The notes under the pieces were generated by a model that worked only from the letters and a program-made list of their open reading frames with translations, was not told the DNA's origin and searched no databases. A DNA stretch of 63,286 nucleotides, the filler included. It is 7 parts of 7 records of this genome, joined end to end, with 100 filler letters (N's around TTAATTAATTAA, not from the genome) between each part and the next. Parts side by side here need not be neighbours in the genome. Positions count along the whole stretch, not along the records: positions 1 to 7,087 come from SRR31156797_28094; 6 more parts are not named here. One strand, written 5' to 3'. Each line of letters begins with the position of its first letter. Position 1 is the first letter of the stretch. The position numbers and the translations under genes were made by a program. Below are positions 1 to 56,935 of this stretch, one piece after another.

Positions 1-1780
1 CATATCTGTCAGCTCTTGACTCATATTCTACCTTTGTAACTGGTCCCATTGCACGGTAAGGAGGAATGTCTTCAGGTCTTTCACTCTTTCCAAGCATAAG
101 CCCCATAACTCTTTGAAGATTGTAAACTCTTGCAGACATCTCAAGCATCTTTTCTTCGTTAAGCTCGATTCCTGTCATGCCTTCGTAAAATTTCCAGTAA
201 TTATAAACGTGATCCGGAACTTTTGCAGCCTGCTGTGGTTTGTTTTTGATAGCATTATCTGCAGGAACAACATCATTCCAGACAAGTTTACAAAGTCCAA
301 GAAGACCAAACCATGTTCTAAAAAGCGGGAAGTAGTAAAGTGCTTCAGCTTTATCGTCAAATGTTGGAAGCTGGTTGTTGACCATGTCCATGAAGATAAG
401 CCAGGCTTCATCATGCTGAGGTCCTTTCATAGCAAGTGTGTATCCACCCTGCTGAGCAAGAGATTCTTTTGAAACATATTCAGAATACTCAAGTCCTTTG
501 ACTTCCATTCCGATATCCTGCATGAAATCGGCCATTTCTGGTTTCATCTTGGACCATTTTTCCTTCATCTTTCTGATTCCCTGACCAACTTCAACACCGA
601 AACCTTCTCCTCGAGCCATCTGGTGGAGAACTTCAAGTGAATCCATAGCAGCACCGAAAGGAAGCTCAAGACCGCCTGTGTATTCCTTGTCAATAATTCC
701 GTGCTCATAACATTCCATTACAAATGCCATTCCTGTTGCATAAGAAATAGTATCAATACCGTAAGTGTCACAGTAAAAATTGTATTCAGCAGTAAAATCA
801 CCGTCAAAACACCCCATATTGGCTGCACCTGCAGCTGTTTCATATTCAGGACCGTCAACACAAACCTTATCACCTTTGTAAGGTCCGGTTTTCAGTGTAA
901 AATGATCAATAGTTTTAGCACATGACATTGAACAGCCATGCCAGCAACCATCAGACTGACCTTGTGTAAAATACTTTTCTTTAAGCATCTTTGAATCGAT
1001 CTTCCAGGTGTCCTTGTGAGAACCGAACTGATAGTTCATTACAGGAAGGAGGTCGTATGCATCCATAACATCAACGATGTTTGCAGTTCCGACATCTCTC
1101 ATTCTACACTGTGACTGATCAAGATTTGCCATTTCAGCATTAACTTTCATTCCGTGTTTTCTGATCGTCTCAGGATTAACAGGATGATTGAGCTCGTCCA
1201 TAACCTGAATTGCACCGGTTGGACATACAAAAGAACAGCTTGTGCAGCCTACACAGTGAGGATCAGAATAGCCAAAAGGCATTGTGATATGTCTTTTAAA
1301 ACCACGTCCTGCAAAATCAATGATACGTTCCTGAATGAATTCATTACAGGCTCTCACACATTTTCCACAGAGGATACATGCTTTTGGGTTATCATCAGTA
1401 AGTTCACTCTTATATTTCTCAGAATCAGTTGCACCACAAAGTCTTGCAACATCCTGAATTGCTTTAACTTTAGGCCATCTTCCAAGATACATCTCAGCAA
1501 GATTCTTTCTGTGCTGCTTAACTTTTGAAGCATCAGTTTTAACAACTATTTCGCTTCTTATTGGAAAATTACAGCTTGTAACAAGTTTAGTTTTTCCGCG
1601 CTCTTCGATCTCTACCATACAAAGCCTGCATGTTCCGTTAGGTGTCAGATCTTTATGGTTACAAAGAGTTGGAACAACAAAACCTGCGTCCATTATCGCT
1701 TTAAGAAGAAAAGTGTCTTTAAGAACTGTGATCTTCTTCCCATTGATAGTAATTTCTATTTTCTTATTTTCAGACATCAT
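1..1780 (-). CDS. Fusion of a HydA/NuoG-like N-terminal Fe-S module ([2Fe-2S] + 2x[4Fe-4S]) with the C-terminal domains of a tungsten aldehyde:ferredoxin oxidoreductase (AFOR_C); 3' partial
   Basis: Missing from the ORF track because it runs off the window without a stop. My translation of the minus strand from ATG 1780/1777 (GGAGG at 1785-1789) is open for about 593 codons: MSENKKIEITINGKK..VPTLCNH..GTCRLCMVE..VTSC ([2Fe-2S]), CILCGKCVRAC and CVGCTSCSFVCP (ferredoxin), then AOR motifs GCWHGCSMSC, GPEYET, CDTYGIDTIS, GLLGLCKL. Confidence 0.9.
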   Translation of the reverse strand, partial: MMSENKKIEITINGKKITVLKDTFLLKAIMDAGFVVPTLCNHKDLTPNGTCRLCMVEIEERGKTKLVTSCNFPIRSEIVVKTDASKVKQHRKNLAEMYLGRWPKVKAIQDVARLCGATDSEKYKSELTDDNPKACILCGKCVRACNEFIQERIIDFAGRGFKRHITMPFGYSDPHCVGCTSCSFVCPTGAIQVMDELNHPVNPETIRKHGMKVNAEMANLDQSQCRMRDVGTANIVDVMDAYDLLPVMNYQFGSHKDTWKIDSKMLKEKYFTQGQSDGCWHGCSMSCAKTIDHFTLKTGPYKGDKVCVDGPEYETAAGAANMGCFDGDFTAEYNFYCDTYGIDTISYATGMAFVMECYEHGIIDKEYTGGLELPFGAAMDSLEVLHQMARGEGFGVEVGQGIRKMKEKWSKMKPEMADFMQDIGMEVKGLEYSEYVSKESLAQQGGYTLAMKGPQHDEAWLIFMDMVNNQLPTFDDKAEALYYFPLFRTWFGLLGLCKLVWNDVVPADNAIKNKPQQAAKVPDHVYNYWKFYEGMTGIELNEEKMLEMSARVYNLQRVMGLMLGKSERPEDIPPYRAMGPVTKVEYESRADRY

Positions 1781-3657
1781 TTCACCTCCACTGCATCAAA
1801 TTTACAGGTTTCAAGACAGATGCCGCATTTAATACATTTTGACGCATCTATCACATGCATTCCCTTTGCTTCTCCGCTGATACAGTTTTCAGGGCATTTC
1901 TTAGCACAGGCTGTACAACCGATACATTTGTCGTTGATTGAATATGTGATAAGTTCTTTACATATTCCTGCACGACATTTCTTATCTTTTATATGCTCTT
2001 CATACTCATCTCTAAAATAGCGGATCGTACTAAGAACAGGGTTAGGAGCACTTGTTCCCAGACCACAGAGACTGCCGTCCATAACTGTTGCGCTGATATC
2101 TTCAAGTCTTTCGATATCACCCTCTTTTCCCTGACCGTTGCAAATTCCATCAAGAATGTTCTTCATAGCAAAAAGACCTTCTCTGCATGGAGTACATTTT
2201 CCACAACTTTCATCAACGAGGAAGTTAATGAAATATCTTGCAACATCAACCATACAAGTGTGATCGTCCATAACGATAAGTCCACCGGAACCCATCATTG
2301 ATCCTGCTTCAGAAAGACTGTCAAAATCAACAGGCATATCAAGAAGCTTTGCCGGAACACATCCACCACTTGGACCGCCACTTTGAACTGCTTTAAACGT
2401 TCTGCCGTTTGGCACTCCGCCACCAACCTCTTCAATGATCTCGCGAAGAGTAATTCCCATAGGAACTTCAACGAGTCCTGTATTTCTGATATCACCAACA
2501 AGTGAGAAAACTTTTGTTCCACTTGATCCGCCCCATGGATTATCTGTTACATCACCAGTTCCAATCGATGCGAACCATTTAGAACCCTTTGTTATGATCG
2601 GAGGAATGTTCGCCCATGTTTCAACGTTATTAAGAACTGTAGGTTTATTTCTAAAACCGAATTCAACACTTCTTACATATTTTGCTCTAGGTTCACCGAC
2701 TCTTCCTTCCATTGAAGCCATAAGTGCTGAACTTTCACCACAGACAAACGCTCCTGCACCTCTGTGAACTGTGATATCAAAAGAGAAATCTGTTCCGAGG
2801 ATCTTTTCACCGAGAAGTCCGTACTCGCGAGCCTGTTCAAGAGCTTTTTCAAGTCTGACAAGTGCAAGAGGATATTCTTTTCTAAGATAGATAAAGCCTT
2901 CTTTTGCGCCAAGTGTATGTGCACCGATGATCATTCCTTCGATAACTGAATGAGGATCAGTTTCAATTATTGAACGATCCATATATGCGCCCGGATCACC
3001 TTCATCTGCATTACAGACTACTGAGATCTCTTCATTCTTTTTATTCTTTATCTCATATCCTGATTTCCATTTAACACCGGCAGGAAAACCTCCGCCGCCA
3101 CGGCCTCTGATACCACTTGCAATAACATCTTTGATAACTTTTTCGCTATCATTCTGCTCGATCACGTTCTTTAAAGCTTTGTAACCGTCTCTTGCAATAT
3201 AGTGATCAATGTTTTCAGGATCGATAAGTCCTTTGTTTCTAAGAGCGATCAGTTCCTGTTTTGAGAAAAAACCGATATCTTCCATCTTTTCGTTCTTTGC
3301 GCCTGTAACAGGATCCGTGTGAAGAAGTCTTTCAACAACGTTTCCACCAAGAAGATGTTCTTTAACGATCTCTTCAGGATCTTTTTCATCAAGTTTCTGA
3401 TAGAAAATTCCTGCTGGCTGAATAACAGCGATAGGACCGACAGCACAAAAACCGTTACAACCGGTTGCAACAGCGATCCAATCTTTTTCAAGACCGTGTT
3501 TTTTAAGAGCTGCATCAAAAAGCTCTTTAATTGTAAAACCGCCTGATGAAACGCAGCCTGTACCTGTACAAACCATTATCATTCCTTTATAACCGGCTTG
3601 TTTTTCACGTTCTTTTCCGGCAATAAGTTCAATATCTTTCATTCCAATTTTTGTCAT
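1777..3657 (-). CDS. nuoF: HydB/NuoF-like NADH- and FMN-binding flavoprotein subunit (BfuB type) with N-terminal thioredoxin-like [2Fe-2S] and C-terminal 2x[4Fe-4S] domains
   Basis: RGRGGGGFPAG, CNADEGDPGAYMDR, GAGAFVCGESSAL, GGPSGG, ESCGKCTPCREG..LCGLG, C-terminal CIGCTACAKKCP and CIKCGICLETC. A homologue of nuoF, not necessarily part of complex I. Confidence 0.93.
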   Translation of the reverse strand: MTKIGMKDIELIAGKEREKQAGYKGMIMVCTGTGCVSSGGFTIKELFDAALKKHGLEKDWIAVATGCNGFCAVGPIAVIQPAGIFYQKLDEKDPEEIVKEHLLGGNVVERLLHTDPVTGAKNEKMEDIGFFSKQELIALRNKGLIDPENIDHYIARDGYKALKNVIEQNDSEKVIKDVIASGIRGRGGGGFPAGVKWKSGYEIKNKKNEEISVVCNADEGDPGAYMDRSIIETDPHSVIEGMIIGAHTLGAKEGFIYLRKEYPLALVRLEKALEQAREYGLLGEKILGTDFSFDITVHRGAGAFVCGESSALMASMEGRVGEPRAKYVRSVEFGFRNKPTVLNNVETWANIPPIITKGSKWFASIGTGDVTDNPWGGSSGTKVFSLVGDIRNTGLVEVPMGITLREIIEEVGGGVPNGRTFKAVQSGGPSGGCVPAKLLDMPVDFDSLSEAGSMMGSGGLIVMDDHTCMVDVARYFINFLVDESCGKCTPCREGLFAMKNILDGICNGQGKEGDIERLEDISATVMDGSLCGLGTSAPNPVLSTIRYFRDEYEEHIKDKKCRAGICKELITYSINDKCIGCTACAKKCPENCISGEAKGMHVIDASKCIKCGICLETCKFDAVEVK

Positions 3658-3658
3658 T

Positions 3659-4933
3659 TCAGCCCTCCTTTGAATTAGTGATCAGCTTATCAAGATCACC
3701 AACTTTCACATTTCCATGCACCTTTTCACCAATCTTAATAACCGGAGCTATACTGCATGCACCAAGACAGGCAACTGCTTCCAGTGTAAACTTGCCATCC
3801 TTTGTTGTTTCTCCGGCTTTCACACCGAGGATCCTTTCAAAGTTACTCAGGATGTTTGCCGCGCCTTTAACGTGACAGGCAGTTCCCATACAGATCTGGA
3901 TTGTCTTTTCACCCTTTTTCTCAAGGCTGAAAGTCTTATAAAAAGTCGCAATATGAAAAAGATAGGCTCTTGGAGTTCCAGTCTTTTCCTGAATAATATC
4001 AATAGCATTTTCAGGGATGCAGCGATACTGTTCCTGAATGTCCTGAAGCATTTCAATAACAAACTCAGGATTGTTTTCCCATTTGTCACAGATAGTTGCT
4101 ATTTTTCCTGTGCAGTCACAACTAGGAAGAGTTTTTGGAGTAACAAACTTAGCAACTTTGCTTTCTTCAACAGTCCACGCCGGGCTGATACCTTTACTCT
4201 TTATTACGAGAGCTTTAATTTTCTTATTTCTAAGAACTGTTCCGATTCCGCCTCTTCCTGCCTGTTTAAGTCTTGCAACTCTTCTTCTCCAGTCATAGAA
4301 AGAGAAATTAAGAACACCCATTCTTGTATGCTCCGCACCTTCACCAGCTGAAACAACAGCGATGTTTCTTTTGTCGATCTCATTGTCGGCATACATTTCT
4401 GTAAGCTCTTCAGCAAGAATATGGCTGTTAGTTGTTTCAAGAGGAGCTTCCATTATGGAGATCTTGTTTTTGGATGCATCAATAAGAACGATGACATCTT
4501 TTTCTGACTTTCCGATCAGAGTAAGAGCATCGAAACCTGCAAACTTAAGGAAAGGACCAAAGTATCCACCAACGTTACTGTCCATCATTCCATCTGTCAT
4601 TGGAGAAACTGCTGTAACCAGAGTTTTTCCTGATCCGGGGAACGAAGTTGTTCCACCAAGAGGACCACTTGACATACAAATTGGATTTTCAGGGCTGTCC
4701 CATTTGGTGTTCTCATTAATTTCCAAAAAGGTAAGCCACATATCAAAACCTTTTCCACCAGTCCAGAGCTGTTTCATCTGTTCTGACACAGGCCTTGTTA
4801 TGATCTCTCCAGTTGAAACATCAATTCTGAGAGTTCTGTCTGCGTAACCTTTTTTAAGTTCTTTAGGTTCAAAATCGAACTCGGAAATAATGCGGTGTGC
4901 ATTCCGCATTTCCTCGATACGGGGATCTGTCAT
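3659..4933 (-). CDS. Fusion of the aldehyde:ferredoxin oxidoreductase N-terminal domain (AFOR_N) with a HydC/NuoE-like [2Fe-2S] domain
   Basis: First about 250 residues: GGKG, ENPICMSSGPL, SPMT..DSNVGGYFGPFLKFAGFDAL, AGRGGIGTVLRNKKIKALV. C-terminal part: ATFYKTF, ICMGTACHVKG, VACLGACSIAP. ATG 4933 with GAGG upstream is preferred to GTG 4945. Confidence 0.9.
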   Translation of the reverse strand: MTDPRIEEMRNAHRIISEFDFEPKELKKGYADRTLRIDVSTGEIITRPVSEQMKQLWTGGKGFDMWLTFLEINENTKWDSPENPICMSSGPLGGTTSFPGSGKTLVTAVSPMTDGMMDSNVGGYFGPFLKFAGFDALTLIGKSEKDVIVLIDASKNKISIMEAPLETTNSHILAEELTEMYADNEIDKRNIAVVSAGEGAEHTRMGVLNFSFYDWRRRVARLKQAGRGGIGTVLRNKKIKALVIKSKGISPAWTVEESKVAKFVTPKTLPSCDCTGKIATICDKWENNPEFVIEMLQDIQEQYRCIPENAIDIIQEKTGTPRAYLFHIATFYKTFSLEKKGEKTIQICMGTACHVKGAANILSNFERILGVKAGETTKDGKFTLEAVACLGACSIAPVIKIGEKVHGNVKVGDLDKLITNSKEG

Positions 4934-5162
4934 AGTTAACCTCACTCGTCAATTATTTAGAAAATACAAACACTTATATAAAAAGCACTCTTCCTTTCCA
5001 AACACGGGAGGCAACAGCTTTTCAACTGAAACCCAGGTCTTTTTCCATAGTCGAAACCTTAGGAAAAAAGACTCGGAATCTTCTCGCGGGAACACTTTAT
5101 ATAATTAGGCGGTGTTTGTAAATAGTTTAGGTTAAAAAATTATCTAGGAATCAATTTATTTG

Positions 5163-6299
5163 TCACTGTTCTTTTCTCAATATCCACAAACCGAAAAACT
5201 TATCTGAAATGTAATATCTTCCACCGCTGTCTTTATCCAACACATCATTTTCTAGGAGTTTTTTCACGGTTCTCTGAATTGTAGAAGCAGGCGGAAGCTG
5301 ATATTTCTTAATAAATTCTGTGGAATAGACTACTGAAGTGTACTTTTCTTTTGCTATAGACAAAATGAGTTTTTTCTCGTTAACAGTAAAATTTTCCCAC
5401 TCGCTTAGAAAAGCGTGTGATTCTCTCTGCATAAGAATTTCCAACGCCTCGTCCACAGTTGATATTTCCGCCAGATTCTCATCAGCAATTTCAAAACAGA
5501 CACTGCACATCATTTGGGTGTAAAAAGGATGTCCATCTGTTCTGGAAAAAATATATTCGACACACTCAGAAGAAATTGTCTTTCCAACACTTTTAAACTT
5601 TTCCTGAACAAATGGAACCCAATGGTCAAGTGCAATGTAACTTATAGGATAGTGAGCAGCACTTCTATAGAGCGGGCTTGATTTATCCATGAACATTTCC
5701 CGAATCATATGCTTCCTGCTTCCGCAGAAAATATAGGAGATATCTTCATGATGTTGAATAACACTTCTTAAGATTCTTTCAGAACGATCACTTTCAAACG
5801 ACCTTATCTGAGGAAACTCATCAAAAATTATTACCAGCTGCTTTTGAGGATATATTTCGGCGATCTTTTCAGGAATTGAAAGAACTTCTTCCAAAACGGT
5901 ATTTTGAAGTGACGCAGGTATAGCTCCAAATGAAATTGTAGGATTGCCCTCACTGTCAACTGTAATAGAAGGTGAAATTGAACCAAAAAATTCCTTGGCG
6001 AAGTTAAAGATCTTTTCCTTTTTAGTTTCGTAGGCTTTTGCATAAGCATTGGCACAGACCGTAATGAAATCTTTTTCCGAAATGCATTTCCAGATGTCAA
6101 TATAGACCGGAATGAAATCATCCTCATCAAGACTTGATATCAGCTTTTTCAGAAGAGATGTTTTCCCGAGCCTCCTTTCGCCGAAAATGAAAAGCTTTCT
6201 CGAACTCTCAACAGCCTTTTTAAGATCGTAAAGCTCCTGAACTCTGTTACAGAACGAATCACCCGTTACAGCCACCCCGAAAGAAAACGGATTTCGCAT
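5163..6299 (-). CDS. AAA+ ATPase (archaeal-ATPase-like) with probable C-terminal winged helix
   Basis: MRNPFSFG start with GGAGG; Walker A GERRLGKTS, Walker B IIFDEFPQ, FCGS, GHPFYTQ, C-terminal DKFFGLW. Confidence 0.85.
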   Translation of the reverse strand: MRNPFSFGVAVTGDSFCNRVQELYDLKKAVESSRKLFIFGERRLGKTSLLKKLISSLDEDDFIPVYIDIWKCISEKDFITVCANAYAKAYETKKEKIFNFAKEFFGSISPSITVDSEGNPTISFGAIPASLQNTVLEEVLSIPEKIAEIYPQKQLVIIFDEFPQIRSFESDRSERILRSVIQHHEDISYIFCGSRKHMIREMFMDKSSPLYRSAAHYPISYIALDHWVPFVQEKFKSVGKTISSECVEYIFSRTDGHPFYTQMMCSVCFEIADENLAEISTVDEALEILMQRESHAFLSEWENFTVNEKKLILSIAKEKYTSVVYSTEFIKKYQLPPASTIQRTVKKLLENDVLDKDSGGRYYISDKFFGLWILRKEQ

Positions 6300-6499
6300 A
6301 AAAACCTCCATAAAAAACTTATTACGCAAAAACAATAATAATTTTTTAGTTAAATTTGTCAATAATTTCAAGATAATCTCTTTTATAAAACAAATTACGC
6401 AAATTGCGTTACGCAAAAGTGGTAATTTGCTAGACATTCGCAAACCCAAACATTGATAAGATACTTTTAATTAAAAACTTTTTCCAGAAAGTTAGGGGA

Positions 6500-7087
6500 T
6501 CAGTAAACTACTGCAGAATTCTTTTGGGGTTTCTTTTTCTTCTTCTCGTCTTCTTTTACGGTCTCTTTTGATCTTTTCGGTGGTTTCACCTTTCTTCTTC
6601 CGTTATAGTTCTTGTTTCCATGATGTTTTTTGTTTCTATACTTTTTCGGTTTTATCCCGACATTTTCATCGATCGCACCATTACAGTTGTTATCTCTTCT
6701 GTCAAAGATCTCAGCTGCTCCGGGATTAACACTGAAGTTATCATCGTTACAGTCTCCAAGTATCTCAGCTCTATAAAGTCCATCGGGTTTACACAGACAT
6801 TTGCTAGTTTTCTGATATCCGAAACCATCACCATCTTTATCATAATAAAATGGTCTGCAATCTTTAAGGTTTTCACCTTCATCAATTTGTCCATTGCAGT
6901 TGTCATCAACTGTGTTACAGATCTCACGCGCATTCTGATGAACATTTTTGTTGTGATCATCGCAGTCCCCGAGTTCAAGAGCAGCATAGATCCCTTTTGA
7001 AACACAGAGACATTTGAATTCTGCAACCCCGACACCATCTCCATCCATATCTTTGTAATATCTGTTGCAGCCTTGCGAATCTTCTGG
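6500..7087 (-). CDS. Protein with Cys/Asp putative metal-binding repeats (MopE-related type), 5' partial, Lys-rich C-terminal tail
   Basis: Two repeats of GDC(D/N)D..(V)xPxAxEI(C/F)..DxNCNGxIDE preceded by YxDxDGDG; cut by the contig end. Confidence 0.75.
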   Translation of the reverse strand, partial: PEDSQGCNRYYKDMDGDGVGVAEFKCLCVSKGIYAALELGDCDDHNKNVHQNAREICNTVDDNCNGQIDEGENLKDCRPFYYDKDGDGFGYQKTSKCLCKPDGLYRAEILGDCNDDNFSVNPGAAEIFDRRDNNCNGAIDENVGIKPKKYRNKKHHGNKNYNGRRKVKPPKRSKETVKEDEKKKKKPQKNSAVVY

Positions 7088-7187
7088 NNNNNNNNNNNNN
7101 NNNNNNNNNNNNNNNNNNNNNNNNNNNNNNNTTAATTAATTAANNNNNNNNNNNNNNNNNNNNNNNNNNNNNNNNNNNNNNNNNNNN
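7088..7187. other. Artificial contig linker (N-run with TTAATTAATTAA)
   Basis: 100-nt spacer with stops in all six frames; the same structure occurs six times in the window. Confidence 0.97.
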
Positions 7188-15811: not shown

Positions 15812-15911
15812 NNNNNNNNNNNNNNNNNNNNNNNNNNNNNNNNNNNNNNNNNNNNTTAATTAATTAANNNNNNNNNNNNNNNNNNNNNNNNNNNNNNNNN
15901 NNNNNNNNNNN
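15812..15911. other. Artificial contig linker
   Basis: N-run with TTAATTAATTAA. Confidence 0.97.
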
Positions 15912-21724: not shown

Positions 21725-21824
21725 NNNNNNNNNNNNNNNNNNNNNNNNNNNNNNNNNNNNNNNNNNNNTTAATTAATTAANNNNNNNNNNNNNNNNNNNN
21801 NNNNNNNNNNNNNNNNNNNNNNNN
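21725..21824. other. Artificial contig linker
   Basis: N-run with TTAATTAATTAA. Confidence 0.97.
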
Positions 21825-33142: not shown

Positions 33143-33242
33143 NNNNNNNNNNNNNNNNNNNNNNNNNNNNNNNNNNNNNNNNNNNNTTAATTAATTAANN
33201 NNNNNNNNNNNNNNNNNNNNNNNNNNNNNNNNNNNNNNNNNN
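33143..33242. other. Artificial contig linker
   Basis: N-run with TTAATTAATTAA. Confidence 0.97.
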
Positions 33243-37452: not shown

Positions 37453-38853
37453 ATGGTAGAAAAACAAAATACACTGGCAGATAAAGCAATTCTGAAAGGT
37501 ACAGGATTGCATACCGGAGCGATGGTTAATTTAGTTTTAAACCCTGCTCCTGAAAATCACGGATATAAGTTTAAAAGAACAGATCTTGAAGGGCAACCCG
37601 TAATTGACGCTTATGCAGAAAACGTTACTTACACCCAAAGAGGTACTGTATTACAAAAGAAAGAAGCTTCTGTTAGTACTATCGAGCACTGTTTGGCAGC
37701 ACTAAGAGGTTTAGGTGTTGACAATTGCTTAATTGAAGTAGATGGCCCAGAAGTACCCATTCTTGACGGAAGCGCAAAATACTTTATCGATGCCATTAAA
37801 AAGGTTGGCATTACCGAACAAGAGGCAGACCGAAAGTACTTTGTGGTTAAAGAAAAAATGGTTTTCGAAGACAAGGAAAAAGGCATTAAAATAGTTGCCT
37901 TACCTGATGATTCTTTTAGCGTGGATACCATGATTTCTTTTAAAAACTCTATTTTATTAGGCAGCCAATATGCTACGCTTGAAAAAATTGAGGACTTTGA
38001 AAAAGAAGTAAGTGCATGCCGTACTTTTGTGTTTCTACATGAGGTGGAAATGCTTATGGAGCACAACCTAATTAAAGGTGGTGACCTGGAAAATGCCATT
38101 GTTATTATTGATAGAGAAGTATCACAGGAAGAACTGGATCGTTTGGCTGATTTATTTCATCAACCAAGAGTTGCAGTTAAACCAATGGGAATTTTAAATA
38201 ACCTCGAGTTAGTTCATCACAATGAGCCTGCTCGTCATAAATTGCTTGATGTCGTTGGAGATCTTTGTTTGGCAGGACTTCCTATTAAAGGAAAAATCAT
38301 TGCTACTCGCCCTGGACACCAATCCAATGTGGAGTTTGCTAAAATGATTCGTACCGAAATCAAAAAGAGAGCAAACAAACCTGAAGTTCCGGAATATGAT
38401 CCTTGCAAAGAGCCAATTTGCGATATCAATAAAATCCGAAGCATGCTTCCTCATCGTTATCCTTTCTTGTTGGTTGATAAAATCATCGATTTAAAGGAGA
38501 ACTATGTGGTGGGAATTAAAAACATCACTTTAAACGAGCCATTTTTTCAGGGGCATTTCCCAACAGAACCTGTAATGCCAGGAGTTTTATTGGTAGAAGC
38601 TATGGCTCAGTGCGGAGGCATCTTTGTTTTAAACCAGGTAGAAGATCCGGAAAACTACTCTACTTATTTTATGAAATTAGACAATATTAAATTCCGTAAA
38701 AAAGTAGTTCCTGGTGATACTGTTATTTTCAAGCTGGATTTAATTACGCCAATTCGACGCGGTGTAGCCAATATGAAAGGGACTGCTTTTGTAGGAGATG
38801 CCGTGGTAGCAGAAGGCGAATTTATGGCCAATGTATCTAAAACAAAACAATAG
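37453..38853 (+). CDS. lpxC: Bifunctional LpxC/FabZ (Bacteroidota fusion)
   Basis: GTGLHTG, TIEHCLAA, RHKLLDVVGD (LpxC); LPHRYPFLLVD, FFQGHFP..MPGVL (FabZ). Confidence 0.95.
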   Translation: MVEKQNTLADKAILKGTGLHTGAMVNLVLNPAPENHGYKFKRTDLEGQPVIDAYAENVTYTQRGTVLQKKEASVSTIEHCLAALRGLGVDNCLIEVDGPEVPILDGSAKYFIDAIKKVGITEQEADRKYFVVKEKMVFEDKEKGIKIVALPDDSFSVDTMISFKNSILLGSQYATLEKIEDFEKEVSACRTFVFLHEVEMLMEHNLIKGGDLENAIVIIDREVSQEELDRLADLFHQPRVAVKPMGILNNLELVHHNEPARHKLLDVVGDLCLAGLPIKGKIIATRPGHQSNVEFAKMIRTEIKKRANKPEVPEYDPCKEPICDINKIRSMLPHRYPFLLVDKIIDLKENYVVGIKNITLNEPFFQGHFPTEPVMPGVLLVEAMAQCGGIFVLNQVEDPENYSTYFMKLDNIKFRKKVVPGDTVIFKLDLITPIRRGVANMKGTAFVGDAVVAEGEFMANVSKTKQ

Positions 38854-47387: not shown

Positions 47388-48612
47388 ATGAAAAAAATCA
47401 GCCTTCATACCTTTAAATATACACTTAGAGATATTCACACAAACACTGAAAATAGAAAGTTCTGTTTTGTTATGGGTGCAGGTGCTAGTTACAAAAGTGG
47501 CATACCCACAGGCGGACAATTAGCCCATAAATGGTTTGATGAAATAAATGACAGATATCCTGCCGAAGAATTGAAGCAATGGATAAAGGATGTAAAAATA
47601 AATAAAAAAGACCTCGCAGCCCATTATGGTTCCATTTATCGAAAACGGTTTGAAAATGATAAAACTTCTGGGTATGAATTTTTAGTTCAAGCCATGCGTA
47701 CAGCAAATCCTACCTTTGGTCATATTGTACTTGCTCAAGTATTAACTAAAGCACCAGGGAATTGCGTTCTTACAACAAACTTTGACAGCTTAATTGAATC
47801 TGCAATTTATCAATATACAGATAAAACACCTCTGGTTTGTGGCCATGAATCCTTAAGTGGTTACGCCAGGCCATCGAAAATTCACCCATTAATTGTTAAA
47901 ATTCATCGTGACCTTTTGTTATCACCCAAGAGTGATCCCGATGAAATAAATGAACTTGACGAAGGATGGAAAGAACCTTTGGATAATATATTCAGTAGCC
48001 ATATACCCATTGTAATTGGCTATGGTGGCAATGATGGCAGTCTGATGGCATATTTTGAAAAAATGAATAAACCAAGTAATTTTTTTGGTGTGGACATAAA
48101 GGCACTCCACCTTCGAAGCGAATTGAAAAACTAGTACAGCAGATGGACGGAAGCTATGTTGAAATTGATGGATTTGACGAAATGATGCAGGAATTATTAT
48201 GGGTATTTGATAAAATAAAACCAATAAAAGAAGAGTTAGATGGTATAACAAAGAGCAGAATAGAGGCTATGAACACACAATTGAATGAGATTAACATTCA
48301 AGCTGAAAAGGTTGATTCTAATAAAACTGAAAGTAAGAAAGAGCTTTCTGCATACGAATATTACACTATGGCAGAAAAGGAACCTGATTTTGAAAAACGA
48401 AAAAGCATATATATCGAAGCCTTAGACAAATTCCCTAAAACTTCATGGCTTTTAGGTTCCTTTGCCTATTTTTTGCATTTTATTAAAAAAGACTATTCTA
48501 ATTTAGAGGAATATTATCTCAAAGCCATATCTACTGAACCTGAACATGCAGCCTTAAATGGAAATTATGCCACCTTTTTGACGGACATAAAAAAGGATTA
48601 TGAGAATGCTGA
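47388..48612 (+). pseudogene. SIR2-like domain + TPR protein interrupted by a frameshift at a T7 run (48080-48086); 3' partial
   Basis: ORF 47388-48134 has GAGAS, TTNFD, KIH and IGYGGND. Adding one T gives NFFWCGHKGTPPSKRIEKLVQQ-MDGSYVEIDGFDE, joining the TPR ORF that starts at 48143. Could be a sequencing error or slippage rather than a true pseudogene. Confidence 0.75.
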
Positions 48613-48712
48613 NNNNNNNNNNNNNNNNNNNNNNNNNNNNNNNNNNNNNNNNNNNNTTAATTAATTAANNNNNNNNNNNNNNNNNNNNNNNNNNNNNNNN
48701 NNNNNNNNNNNN
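48613..48712. other. Artificial contig linker
   Basis: N-run with TTAATTAATTAA. Confidence 0.97.
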
Positions 48713-54699: not shown

Positions 54700-56049
54700 A
54701 TGTTATTAACATTAGCGCTATTAATATTAGCAACATTTATATTCTTAGTTTATTTAATGATTTTTTATGGTAGGCAGGCTATTTTTGGTGACGCCATGAG
54801 ATTTTATAAACAAGGTGAAACAGAAAAAGCCATTAAAAGTTTAAAAAGCTATAAAGCAGCAAGACCTTCAGATATTAGAGCAAAAAAAGTTTTGGGGAAA
54901 ATCTATTATGACCAAGATAATTTTGTTGATTCTTTGAAAGAGTTTATTAGTATAACTCTTAGTAGAAAGGCAAATCCGGACGAGAAGGCTGAAGCTTATG
55001 CAATGATAGCAAAAATCTACATGGAACAAAAAGAGTTTCCTAGAGCAACAGAATCAGTAATTGCAGGTTTAAAGGCAAATCCTAAAAGTCCGTCTCTTTA
55101 TTGTTACTTAGGGCAGATTTATGCATTAATGGGTAAAGAAAAAAAAGCTATCAGAGTATTTAACGAGTCATTAAAAATAGATAGAACTCATATTCAGACA
55201 AGATTGGAACTGGCAAAACTACATATAGCATTAAAGAATAGATTTAAGGCCAGATTTCAATTTAGGAAAATACTTGAGATTAATCCAAATAATGATGAAG
55301 CCAGATTTGAACTTGCTAGACTTCTACATGAAGAGGGAGAAGTTGACGAAGCTGCTGAAATCATGGAACAATTAAGAAATATAAACGGAAGAGAAAGAGA
55401 ATACTATACTGCACTTTACGAATATCATAAGGAACAGGGAAATATCGAAAGAGTTGAATTTTTGATAGGAAAAATGCTTGAACTTGCGGAGGTATTCCCG
55501 GATCTTATTGCAATTCTTAAATATGATAAAGGGATGATATTAGAAGGCAAAGGTGATTTAGAAGGAGCCTATGAAGTATATAAAGAAGTAAAGGATATTA
55601 ATCCGAGATATATGGATATAGAAAACCGACTTCAAAATCTGACAAAGACCTTATACCCTGATGAATATAAGAAAATGTTAGAGGGAATTGATTATAACGA
55701 ACTTAATCCATATCAGCTTTCTCAGGTATTTGAAACTATAATTGAGAGATTAGGATTAAAAATTACTTATGAAATTGAATCAAAAGCTGATAAATTTGCA
55801 GCTATGGCATCAGATCAAATGAATCCAAAAGATAAATTCTTAGTTCAGCTTATGGTTATGCCGAGAGCTACGAATGTAAGGGATCTTCAAATCTTCTTAA
55901 CACAATTTGAGGATTATAAAGCAACAAATGGTATATTTATTACTACAAATACATATAATGATCAAGCGGTTACATATGCTGAAAGTGTTCATAACCTTGA
56001 AATACTTGATAAAGTCCATATGTACGACCTTGTTGGGGAAGTTACCTGA
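54700..56049 (+). CDS. Membrane-anchored TPR protein with C-terminal Mrr-like restriction-endonuclease fold
   Basis: N-terminal TM, multiple TPRs, C-terminal FETIIERLG..FLVQ..GIFITTNTYNDQAVTYA..LEILD. Confidence 0.75.
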   Translation: MLLTLALLILATFIFLVYLMIFYGRQAIFGDAMRFYKQGETEKAIKSLKSYKAARPSDIRAKKVLGKIYYDQDNFVDSLKEFISITLSRKANPDEKAEAYAMIAKIYMEQKEFPRATESVIAGLKANPKSPSLYCYLGQIYALMGKEKKAIRVFNESLKIDRTHIQTRLELAKLHIALKNRFKARFQFRKILEINPNNDEARFELARLLHEEGEVDEAAEIMEQLRNINGREREYYTALYEYHKEQGNIERVEFLIGKMLELAEVFPDLIAILKYDKGMILEGKGDLEGAYEVYKEVKDINPRYMDIENRLQNLTKTLYPDEYKKMLEGIDYNELNPYQLSQVFETIIERLGLKITYEIESKADKFAAMASDQMNPKDKFLVQLMVMPRATNVRDLQIFLTQFEDYKATNGIFITTNTYNDQAVTYAESVHNLEILDKVHMYDLVGEVT

Positions 56050-56835: not shown

Positions 56836-56935
56836 NNNNNNNNNNNNNNNNNNNNNNNNNNNNNNNNNNNNNNNNNNNNTTAATTAATTAANNNNNNNNN
56901 NNNNNNNNNNNNNNNNNNNNNNNNNNNNNNNNNNN
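56836..56935. other. Artificial contig linker
   Basis: N-run with TTAATTAATTAA. Confidence 0.97.

Follow-up and report, generated by a model that had tools for sequence, protein, structure and literature searches.

Enzymes of the AOR (aldehyde:ferredoxin oxidoreductase) family, which carry tungsten or molybdenum, and the flavin-based electron-bifurcating Bfu modules are both central to anaerobic redox metabolism. The closest described combination of the two is WorABCSL from Acetomicrobium mobile (PDB 9mqx), in which a pterin enzyme of the AOR family is connected to BfuABC; it oxidises aldehydes and reduces NAD+ and ferredoxin (PMC12318220). Its catalytic subunit WorL is one intact chain, the polyferredoxin WorS feeds WorA, and there are three WorSL units per WorABC; Supplementary Table 1 of PMC9304861 lists Wor as 'Wor-BfuABCDE' in Synergistetes and Firmicutes. 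Here we analyse a stretch of 63,286 nucleotides (the window), made of joined pieces with six paired runs of N, the first at 7088; only positions 1-7087 are certainly contiguous with the operon that concerns us. Its three genes probably encode one soluble complex, in which a pterin (tungsten or molybdenum) oxidoreductase split in two is carried on a Bfu module.

Other described systems share parts of this anatomy. AorABC of Aromatoleum aromaticum (8c0z) and the AOR of Pyrococcus furiosus (1aor) have the same AOR fold, [4Fe-4S] ligands, Glu/His pair and first pterin motif, and are the best solved matches of the C half and the N half, respectively; however, their catalytic chain is intact, AorABC has an FAD subunit and a polyferredoxin as partners and 1aor has none, and Foldseek identity is 16-17%. 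HydABC and other BfuABC enzymes (7q4v, 8a6t, 7t2r, 7p5h) have the BfuB/BfuC core and the BfuA N-terminal module, but their third-substrate site lies on the BfuA C-terminal domain or on extra subunits, whereas in the window it would be shared by extensions of BfuA and BfuC. This layout fits none of the four structural Bfu types (Types 1-4) of PMC9304861. The class II benzoyl-CoA reductase BamB-I also has a tungsten-pterin AOR-family subunit in complex with NuoEFG/HydABC-like subunits, BamB being named as the tungsten-bearing catalytic subunit of Bam in PMC12096430; in contrast to the window enzyme, BamB is intact, is accompanied by many further subunits, and matches the C half weakly.

In the literature searched, the described AOR-Bfu combinations have an intact catalytic subunit linked by extra ferredoxin-like subunits, whereas here the cofactor-holding subunit is divided between two Bfu subunits. 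An earlier note on this DNA had stated that the tungsten-linked examples known to it keep the WOR catalytic subunit as a separate intact chain, in agreement with the sources on WorABCSL (PMC12318220, PMC9304861) and Bam (PMC12096430). A search of the full-text literature, with the 2021 PNAS survey of 92 WOR clades and Fig. S1 of the supplementary information of PMC12318220 outside its scope, gave no description of a split or fused AOR, and none occurs in the accessible parts of PMC9304861, PMC12318220, PMC12096430, PMC7325909, PMC11406978, PMC3971608 and bioRxiv 10.1101/2021.10.08.463351. A prior characterisation of the split form, which the earlier note said would remove its novelty, was not found in that search.

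Gene content and layout of the operon

Open reading frame listing and Pfam searches delimit three minus-strand genes in 1-4945, namely AFOR_N::BfuC (HydC), BfuB (HydB) and BfuA-N (HydA-N)::AFOR_C. The features are as follows.

3659..4933, minus strand: gene 1, AFOR_N::BfuC (HydC/NuoE-like) fusion (open reading frame listing, Pfam, start of P0001)
4196..4837, minus strand: AOR domain 1 (AFOR_N), residues 37-250 in the 428-residue numbering, with the invariant AGRGG stretch (Pfam, alignments)
4100..4195, minus strand: AFOR_N-BfuC linker, residues about 251-282, with a conserved P-x-W (model confidence, alignment)
3674..4099, minus strand: BfuC/HydC thioredoxin-like [2Fe-2S] domain, with invariant Cys 352, 357, 393 and 397 (Pfam, WorC match)
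1777..3657, minus strand: gene 2, BfuB/HydB (NuoF-like), 626 residues (Pfam/NCBIfam, full-length HydB/WorB matches)
1190..1780, minus strand: N-terminal part of gene 3, BfuA/HydA N-terminal module (Pfam, WorA match)
2..1189, minus strand: C-terminal part of gene 3, AOR domains 2 and 3 (AFOR_C) (Pfam, 8c0z and 1aor alignments)
4934..5162, minus strand: upstream intergenic region with three sigma-70-like matches (weak consensus matches)

These are the three coupled genes, AFOR_N::HydC, HydB and HydA-N::AFOR_C, that the earlier note had described, and the Pfam families it expected are found in all three proteins, the Fer2 family being Fer2_4. Gene 1 encodes 424 residues from the ATG at 4933, or 428 from an in-frame GTG upstream at 4945; the ATG is the likely start because P0001, a 99% identical protein, begins at that methionine, and 4933 is also where the earlier note ended the operon. 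In this protein, AFOR_N (E = 2.3e-46, covering positions 2-198 of the 199 in the profile) spans residues 37-250, and 2Fe-2S_thioredx (HydC/NuoE) spans residues 283-424 (E = 2.8e-43). Gene 2 matches Complex1_51K, SLBB, NADH_4Fe-4S and, at residues 574-624, Fer4 families that correspond to a C-terminal 2x[4Fe-4S] domain; an N-terminal 2Fe-2S_thioredx match at residues 24-100 (E = 3.9e-4) lies under the Pfam cut-off. In gene 3 (1780..2, 593 residues as read) Fer2_4 spans residues 6-83, residues 131-192 form a 2x[4Fe-4S] domain, and AFOR_C covers residues 211-582 (E = 2e-78, profile positions 4-345 of 385), the last match ending short because the gene leaves the window, a point on which the earlier note was silent. 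The near-identical P0244 has a full length of 672 residues, so that about 79 residues are missing here, and AFOR_C is complete both in P0244 and in related loci.

The stop of gene 1 and the ATG of gene 2 are 1 nt apart, genes 2 and 3 overlap in ATGATG, and a GGAGG precedes each of the three gene starts; the genes are translationally coupled. The upstream region 4934..5162, with three promoter-like matches against a mean of 1.0 in shuffled sequences (sigma-70-like consensus only, weak), is the probable start of the operon.

The two AOR parts align as halves of a single protein. The break points quoted in the earlier note, ...KKIKALVIKSKG and LNHPVNPETIRK..., are present in the translations and correspond to residues 246 and 249 of the intact relative L135. 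Residues 10-253 of gene 1 align without gaps to residues 3-246 of L135 (52% identity), and residues 205-672 of the complete gene 3 homologue of L081 align to its residues 249-715 (57% identity); the halves thus abut within two residues, contiguous and without overlap, with nothing lost or duplicated. Aligned to P. furiosus AOR (1aor), they cover residues 6-206 and 240-494. This alignment, which the earlier note had proposed as a check, supports its placing of the break in the linker between AOR domain 1 and domains 2/3, and argues for one AOR-family protein split exactly at the domain 1/domain 2 boundary.

The cofactor motifs quoted in the earlier note are all found in the translations. Cys288, Cys291, Cys295, Cys494, Glu313, Asp338 and His448 of 1aor all have equivalents in gene 3 (positions counted along the alignment), and the equivalents of the cluster cysteines, Glu313, His448 and Asp338, the last belonging to the first DxxGxD pterin motif, are invariant in all 27 aligned split-form gene 3 proteins. 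Glu313 and His448, which we take to be active-site residues of AOR, correspond to E312 and H454 in the numbering of L002. On the AFOR_N side, the AGRGG stretch and the equivalent of Asn93 are invariant in 37/37 gene 1 homologues, and the positions of Arg76 and Arg182 hold an invariant Lys; we assume for Asn93, Arg76 and Arg182 the roles they have in AOR. Two departures had gone unremarked in the earlier note. The cluster motif has the spacing CX3CX3C in 27/27 split forms, against CX2CX3C in P. furiosus AOR, and the Asp of the second of the two DxxGL(C/D) motifs, which presumably bind the pterin, is replaced (Asp489 position) by Gly in 26 of the 27 and by Cys in L088. The intact L135 has the same spacing and the same Gly as the split forms. 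Overall, roughly a quarter of the aligned positions of the C half are identical to 1aor and 8c0z (by eye on the alignments), and Foldseek identity to solved AORs is 15-21% over the model.

Between AFOR_N and BfuC, P255 is nearly invariant and W257 invariant among the 37 sequences, and free-standing AFOR_N proteins of relatives carry this conserved P-x-W at their C-terminal end, in a similar ...RPRW... tail. An AlphaFold2 model of gene 1 (mean predicted local distance difference test, pLDDT, 79.6) is confident in both domains and falls below 50 at residues 254-265, which would fit a tether between them.

The remaining parts of the three proteins point to a bifurcating Bfu module. Gene 2 matches solved HydB/BfuB proteins end to end (7q4v_B, E = 1.2e-222; 7t2r_B; and, third best, WorB, 9mqx_B, E = 1.6e-215) and holds the FMN/NADH site together with the B1 and B2 site ligands. 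We compared it by eye with Supplementary Figs 9-10 of Schut et al. 2022 (PMC9304861), where a line separates the bifurcating enzymes from four non-bifurcating homologues and certain sequence forms are confined to the former. Among these forms, gene 2 shows DEGDPGAYMDR and GAGAFVCGE, together with the B1 cysteines and the Cys/His/Cys/Cys ligands of the B2 site, the last comprising a His-x5-Cys-x4-Cys stretch and an upstream Cys as in the Bfu rows of Supplementary Fig. 9; the nucleotide-site motifs of those figures are also intact. Judged on this comparison, BfuB carries every residue signature listed by Schut et al. 2022 for bifurcating Bfu enzymes. Its C-terminal 2x[4Fe-4S] domain has been proposed to bind ferredoxin.

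The BfuC part finds its best solved match in WorC (9mqx_C, E = 5e-42), and its four cysteines are invariant in 37/37 gene 1 homologues. The BfuA part (gene 3 residues 4-189) is closest to WorA (9mqx_A, E = 1.9e-36), and Foldseek with an AlphaFold2 model of the L002 gene 3 protein ranks 9mqx_A first (42% identity) and WorL, 9mqx_D, second. Twelve cysteines invariant among the 27 gene 3 homologues provide for the A1 [2Fe-2S] and the A2 and A4 [4Fe-4S] clusters, and there is no Cys at the A3 site in any of these aligned homologues, as in WorA. AOR domain 2 begins only about 12 residues past the last A4 Cys.

The likeness to WorABCSL takes in a short BfuA with A1, A2 and A4 only, the top-ranking solved hits for the C and A parts and the third-ranking one for gene 2, and the same BfuB signatures. 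The AOR part, in contrast, is not close to WorL (C half, E = 1.1e-11), and the operon holds no intact WorL: domain 1 and domains 2/3 are on separate chains, with the BfuC and BfuB genes between. Nor is there a WorS polyferredoxin in the operon, whose genes abut, or among the flanking proteins scanned in relatives (71 of 118 flanking open reading frames, being the nearer ones, with more distant or already scanned ones left out, plus others); the region downstream of gene 3 in the source of the window lies outside this search. The halves are instead fused to BfuC and BfuA, implying a 1:1:1 stoichiometry in place of the three WorSL per WorABC.

Relatives and gene-order variants

The earlier note had suggested searching other genomes for the same architecture, and it is found in all relatives listed, across many phyla. 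We examined 120 listed relatives each of gene 1, gene 3 and a longer form, the last out of 536 proteins in total at E <= 1e-20. All 120 gene 1 relatives carry AFOR_N and the HydC domain (PF02730 and PF01257); all 120 gene 3 relatives carry Fer2_4 and AFOR_C, none of those listed having AFOR_N; and all 120 longer relatives are AFOR_N::HydC::HydB proteins of about 1065, 900 or 820 residues, none of those listed having AFOR_C. Their sources are all named as metagenome-assembled genomes or 'bacterium', represent at least fifteen lineages, and come mostly from sediments and digesters. The labels include Cloacimonadota, Elusimicrobia, Sumerlaeota, Spirochaetales, Melioribacteraceae/Ignavibacteria, Calditrichia, Aminicenantes, Krumholzibacteriota, Eisenbacteria, Chloroflexi, Myxococcota, Deltaproteobacteria, Oligoflexales/Bacteriovoracaceae, Chitinispirillia and KSB1, together with Saccharimonadales and Dojkabacteria bins that may be mis-binned. 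The family is abundant, with hundreds of protein clusters from such genomes. Because public annotation gives its members no label beyond 'NADH-dependent oxidoreductase subunit E', '(2Fe-2S)-binding protein' or 'aldehyde:ferredoxin oxidoreductase', counts of complex I fragments, and of AORs, are likely to be wrong in metabolic reconstructions.

A metagenome scan with gene 3 also returned many loci that match its AFOR_C part alone, at about 60% identity. These encode intact single-chain AFOR_N+AFOR_C proteins of 718-732 residues (for example L135:7266-9422 and L109:7203-9401), which are the nearest relatives of both halves and likewise uncharacterised; they differ from the window enzyme in being one chain, with no Bfu module, and in standing alone in their loci. 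Another contig, L146, carries a canonical-length AOR (727-2595, 623 residues) and a member of this subfamily of about 720 residues (3513-5726), the two being very distant from each other.

Sorting of 88 loci (L001-L008, L081-L160) by phmmer with five domain pieces gave 38 split, 46 intact and 4 ambiguous cases, the ambiguous ones being three cut by contig ends and L120. In L120 (7168-9329) AFOR_N and AFOR_C lie in two overlapping frames and the locus groups with the intact proteins, which could be due to a frameshift or sequencing error, or else to a separate splitting event in which no Bfu module took part. All modules are present in 26 of the 38 split loci, and in every one of these 26 they are ordered AFOR_N, C, B, A::AFOR_C on one strand. 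Within this order, three layouts occur. In the four-gene form (12 loci), a free-standing AFOR_N ends in ...RPRW... and a few further residues and has a stop codon of its own, after which come a ribosome-binding site and the start of HydC; the three-gene form has the layout of the window; and in the two-gene form (4 loci) AFOR_N, C and B are fused. The two-gene proteins of L003 and L004 have 902-904 residues, without the N-terminal HydB domain. Still shorter are P0235-P0239, AFOR_N::HydC::HydB proteins of 815-829 residues with no Fer4 family in the precomputed Pfam list, which may lack the C-terminal ferredoxin-like domain of BfuB, the proposed ferredoxin site. In a single locus, L110 (7165-10028), HydA-N::AFOR_C comes directly after AFOR_N, and neither HydC nor HydB is present anywhere in the 17.7 kb of the locus.

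In three of the 12 four-gene loci (L098:5587-5589, L099:920-922 and L108:5587-5589; L098 and L099 are identical here), the free AFOR_N and HydC share a reading frame, with a single TGA and a short spacer between them, and loss of that TGA would yield the fused form of the window. The AFOR_N::HydC fusion is thus missing from some split forms and may have arisen later.

In a tree of AFOR_C, the fused forms make one clade (Shimodaira-Hasegawa-like approximate likelihood ratio, SH-aLRT, support 99) with one four-gene form as its sister, and the two-gene forms appear at three or more places among the three-gene forms. The remaining four-gene forms group with the intact proteins, so that split forms are found in two places; L110 nests among four-gene forms. 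A tree in which the split forms are constrained to one clade is worse by 8.2 log-likelihood units, and the approximately unbiased (AU) test does not reject it (p = 0.308). The sole outgroup available is the 623-residue AOR of L146, on a branch of 8 changes per column, and the tree is in practice unrooted.

These data bear on the proposal in the earlier note that a cassette had been inserted at the domain boundary. The invariant gene order in 26/26 loci fits it, but the history of insertion is not established, because 12 loci have separate AFOR_N and HydC, the tree is unrooted, and a single origin is left undecided by the AU test. The anatomy described in that note is thus supported, and its biochemistry and history are plausible. 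The series of four-, three- and two-gene forms would be a clear case, found in nature, of a gene that was split and whose parts were then fused step by step.

Proposed mechanism and alternative explanations

From the domain content, contiguous halves, conserved ligands, conserved layout and Bfu-type signatures obtained here, we infer that the halves assemble and that NAD+ and ferredoxin are reduced in a coupled way, and also which metal, substrate, direction and path of electrons are involved. Domain 1 would sit at the N-terminus of BfuC, and domains 2 and 3, with the [4Fe-4S] cluster and the catalytic Glu and His, at the C-terminus of a short BfuA. In solved AORs (1aor) a bis-pterin cofactor lies between domain 1 and domains 2/3; the site would therefore need both fusion proteins, and should form only when these meet on BfuB. 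Since AFOR_N is free-standing in 12 loci, the halves must there associate non-covalently, as one complex. The substrate would most likely be an aldehyde or a similar low-potential donor, whose electrons may pass from the pterin metal to the AOR [4Fe-4S] cluster and on through A4, A2 and A1 to the flavin-FeS core of BfuB/BfuC, from which they would leave to NAD+ and ferredoxin, as for WorABCSL. Direct fusion would stand in for the WorS polyferredoxin, so that no connecting wire is needed, and would fix the stoichiometry at 1:1:1. With no more than two or three polypeptides, the complex would also lend itself well to studies of the structure and mechanism of Bfu enzymes.

The fusion layout is not an assembly artefact. 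Given a window built of joined pieces, with six paired N runs, and a gene 3 truncated by its edge, one might suspect fusions produced by misassembly, frameshifts or a degenerating operon; yet the first N run (7088) lies outside the operon, and a contig from run X1, assembled with another pipeline, spans 97-5100 with 0 differences and continues about 2.9 kb past the start of the window (X1 being the probable source and hence not independent as a sample). In two marine-sediment runs, X2 and X3, short contigs of relatives at roughly 94% identity read without gaps through 4007-4412 (AFOR_N/HydC junction), 1061-1516 (HydA-N/AFOR_C junction) and 3318-3676 (boundary of genes 1 and 2). The misassembly at either junction that the earlier note named as fatal to its reading is thus not seen in the X1, X2 and X3 contigs, which span both. 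Moreover, hundreds of protein clusters, drawn from many phyla, carry the same fusions and keep the ligands invariant. On these contigs and on the conservation of the fusions among relatives, we reject the misassembly and pseudogene readings, whose probability we put close to nil.

Two further alternatives retain the split complex and change its chemistry. It may be non-bifurcating, either reducing NAD+ or using NADH, with the NuoEFG-like module as a diaphorase for which ferredoxin is not obligatory. The FAD subunit of A. aromaticum AorABC plays such a role, and NuoEFG-like modules also occur in non-bifurcating enzymes (PMC9304861); furthermore, some two-gene relatives have lost the N-terminal [2Fe-2S] of BfuB, and the C-terminal Fer4 is unlisted in the shorter forms. 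However, the DEGDPGA(Y/F)MDR, GAGAFVCGE and Cys/His/Cys/Cys B2 ligand forms seen in gene 2 are on the bifurcating side only in Supplementary Figs 9-10 of PMC9304861, and gene 2 retains its C-terminal 2x[4Fe-4S] domain, the proposed ferredoxin binder; we therefore regard a diaphorase as unlikely. Still less probable, in our estimate, is a complex working in the reductive direction, perhaps on a substrate other than an aldehyde, as BamB does on benzoyl-CoA, with NADH and reduced ferredoxin driving a low-potential reduction. Such a complex would accord with an AOR part from an uncharacterised subfamily with altered cluster and second pterin motifs, with the reversibility of Bfu enzymes (PMC9304861), with the existence of Bam-type tungsten enzymes having HydABC-like subunits (PMC9304861 and PMC12096430), and with the lack of any conserved neighbour suggestive of aldehyde metabolism among the 71 flanking open reading frames scanned, where one locus has an aldehyde dehydrogenase. 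Against it, the 27 aligned gene 3 proteins all keep the equivalents of Glu313 and His448, as found in aldehyde-oxidising AORs; among solved structures that match the C half, BamB ranks last (E = 2.6e-4); and, according to Table 1 of PMC9304861, the mean potential of NADH and reduced ferredoxin is well above that of the acid/aldehyde couple.

Several observations weigh against the bifurcating split complex that we prefer. The AOR part belongs to an uncharacterised subfamily far from the solved AORs, so that 'aldehyde' is an extrapolation; its second pterin-motif Asp is a Gly, and its cluster spacing is unusual. The module is not uniform, relatives of about 900 residues being without the BfuB N-terminal [2Fe-2S] and forms of about 820 residues without a listed Fer4, and L110, with neither C nor B, suggests that the split enzyme may work with other partners. 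In the AlphaFold2 model of the L002 gene 3 protein (pLDDT 77), residues 451-519, which surround the His and the fourth Cys, are ill-defined, although this may reflect no more than the missing partner and cofactor and would, as weak evidence, fit a site that needs both. Finally, even for WOR1, the nearest known enzyme, no endergonic step has been demonstrated according to a review (PMC12096430), and bifurcation there is unproven, a point that also favours a diaphorase.

If the split complex is bifurcating as proposed, the division of the AOR may itself have a function beyond shortening the wiring, although we give this idea only a slender chance. Domain 1 would be the floor of the pterin site, hung on BfuC by the partly conserved linker, and redox- or nucleotide-linked movements of the BfuB/BfuC core could, through that linker, open and close the catalytic site and so tie turnover to the state of the flavin. 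Gating of this kind, if true, would give flavin-based electron bifurcation a new means of making its coupling obligate, and the two-gene forms would then be the most compact complete Bfu enzymes known.

Neighbouring genes and the rest of the window

Upstream of the operon, after the intergenic stretch, lie a gene of the ATPase_2 family (5163-6449, minus strand; ATPase_2/AAA_14, 428 residues) and a gene for a 182-residue protein with two MopE-type putative metal-binding repeats and a Lys-rich tail (6500-7048, minus strand). Flanks were listed for 22 related loci, 19 of which have at least one gene called downstream of the operon. In seven of these 19 (L004, L007, L081, L083, L089, L090 and L117) a short ThiF-family gene is found within 1.1 kb downstream, immediately adjacent in five of them, second in L089 and third in L083; the copy in L007 passes the NCBIfam ThiF cut-offs. 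L087 has a ThiS domain downstream of the operon, and L117 has MoeA upstream. Sulfur-carrier and ThiF-like genes accompany AOR genes and serve pterin maturation, and the downstream ThiF-family genes would fit such a role by analogy. The 71 flanking open reading frames gave no hint of the substrate, the aldehyde dehydrogenase being near one locus only. The genes of about 352 residues beside L007 and L135 were considered as a shared neighbour and rejected as unrelated, and likewise genes of 200 and 196 residues.

The paired N runs of the window (44 N, 12 bases, 44 N) are at 7088-7187, 15812-15911, 21725-21824, 33143-33242, 48613-48712 and 56836-56935, and G+C content, about 0.35-0.41, rises to 0.45-0.52 past about 7.5 kb. 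It seems, then, that several contigs of one bin were joined to make the window, and genes past 7087 need not be linked to the operon; in the rest of the window we found nothing relevant to it. Two possible defence genes lie on other pieces, encoding a SIR2_2-domain protein (47388-48134) and a TPR protein with a C-terminal Mrr_cat restriction-endonuclease domain (54700-56049). A 466-residue fusion of LpxC with a FabA/FabZ-like domain (37453-38853) is flanked by LpxD and LpxA, and elsewhere the window encodes a GH127 enzyme with Por_Secre_tail (type IX secretion) and a squalene-hopene cyclase.

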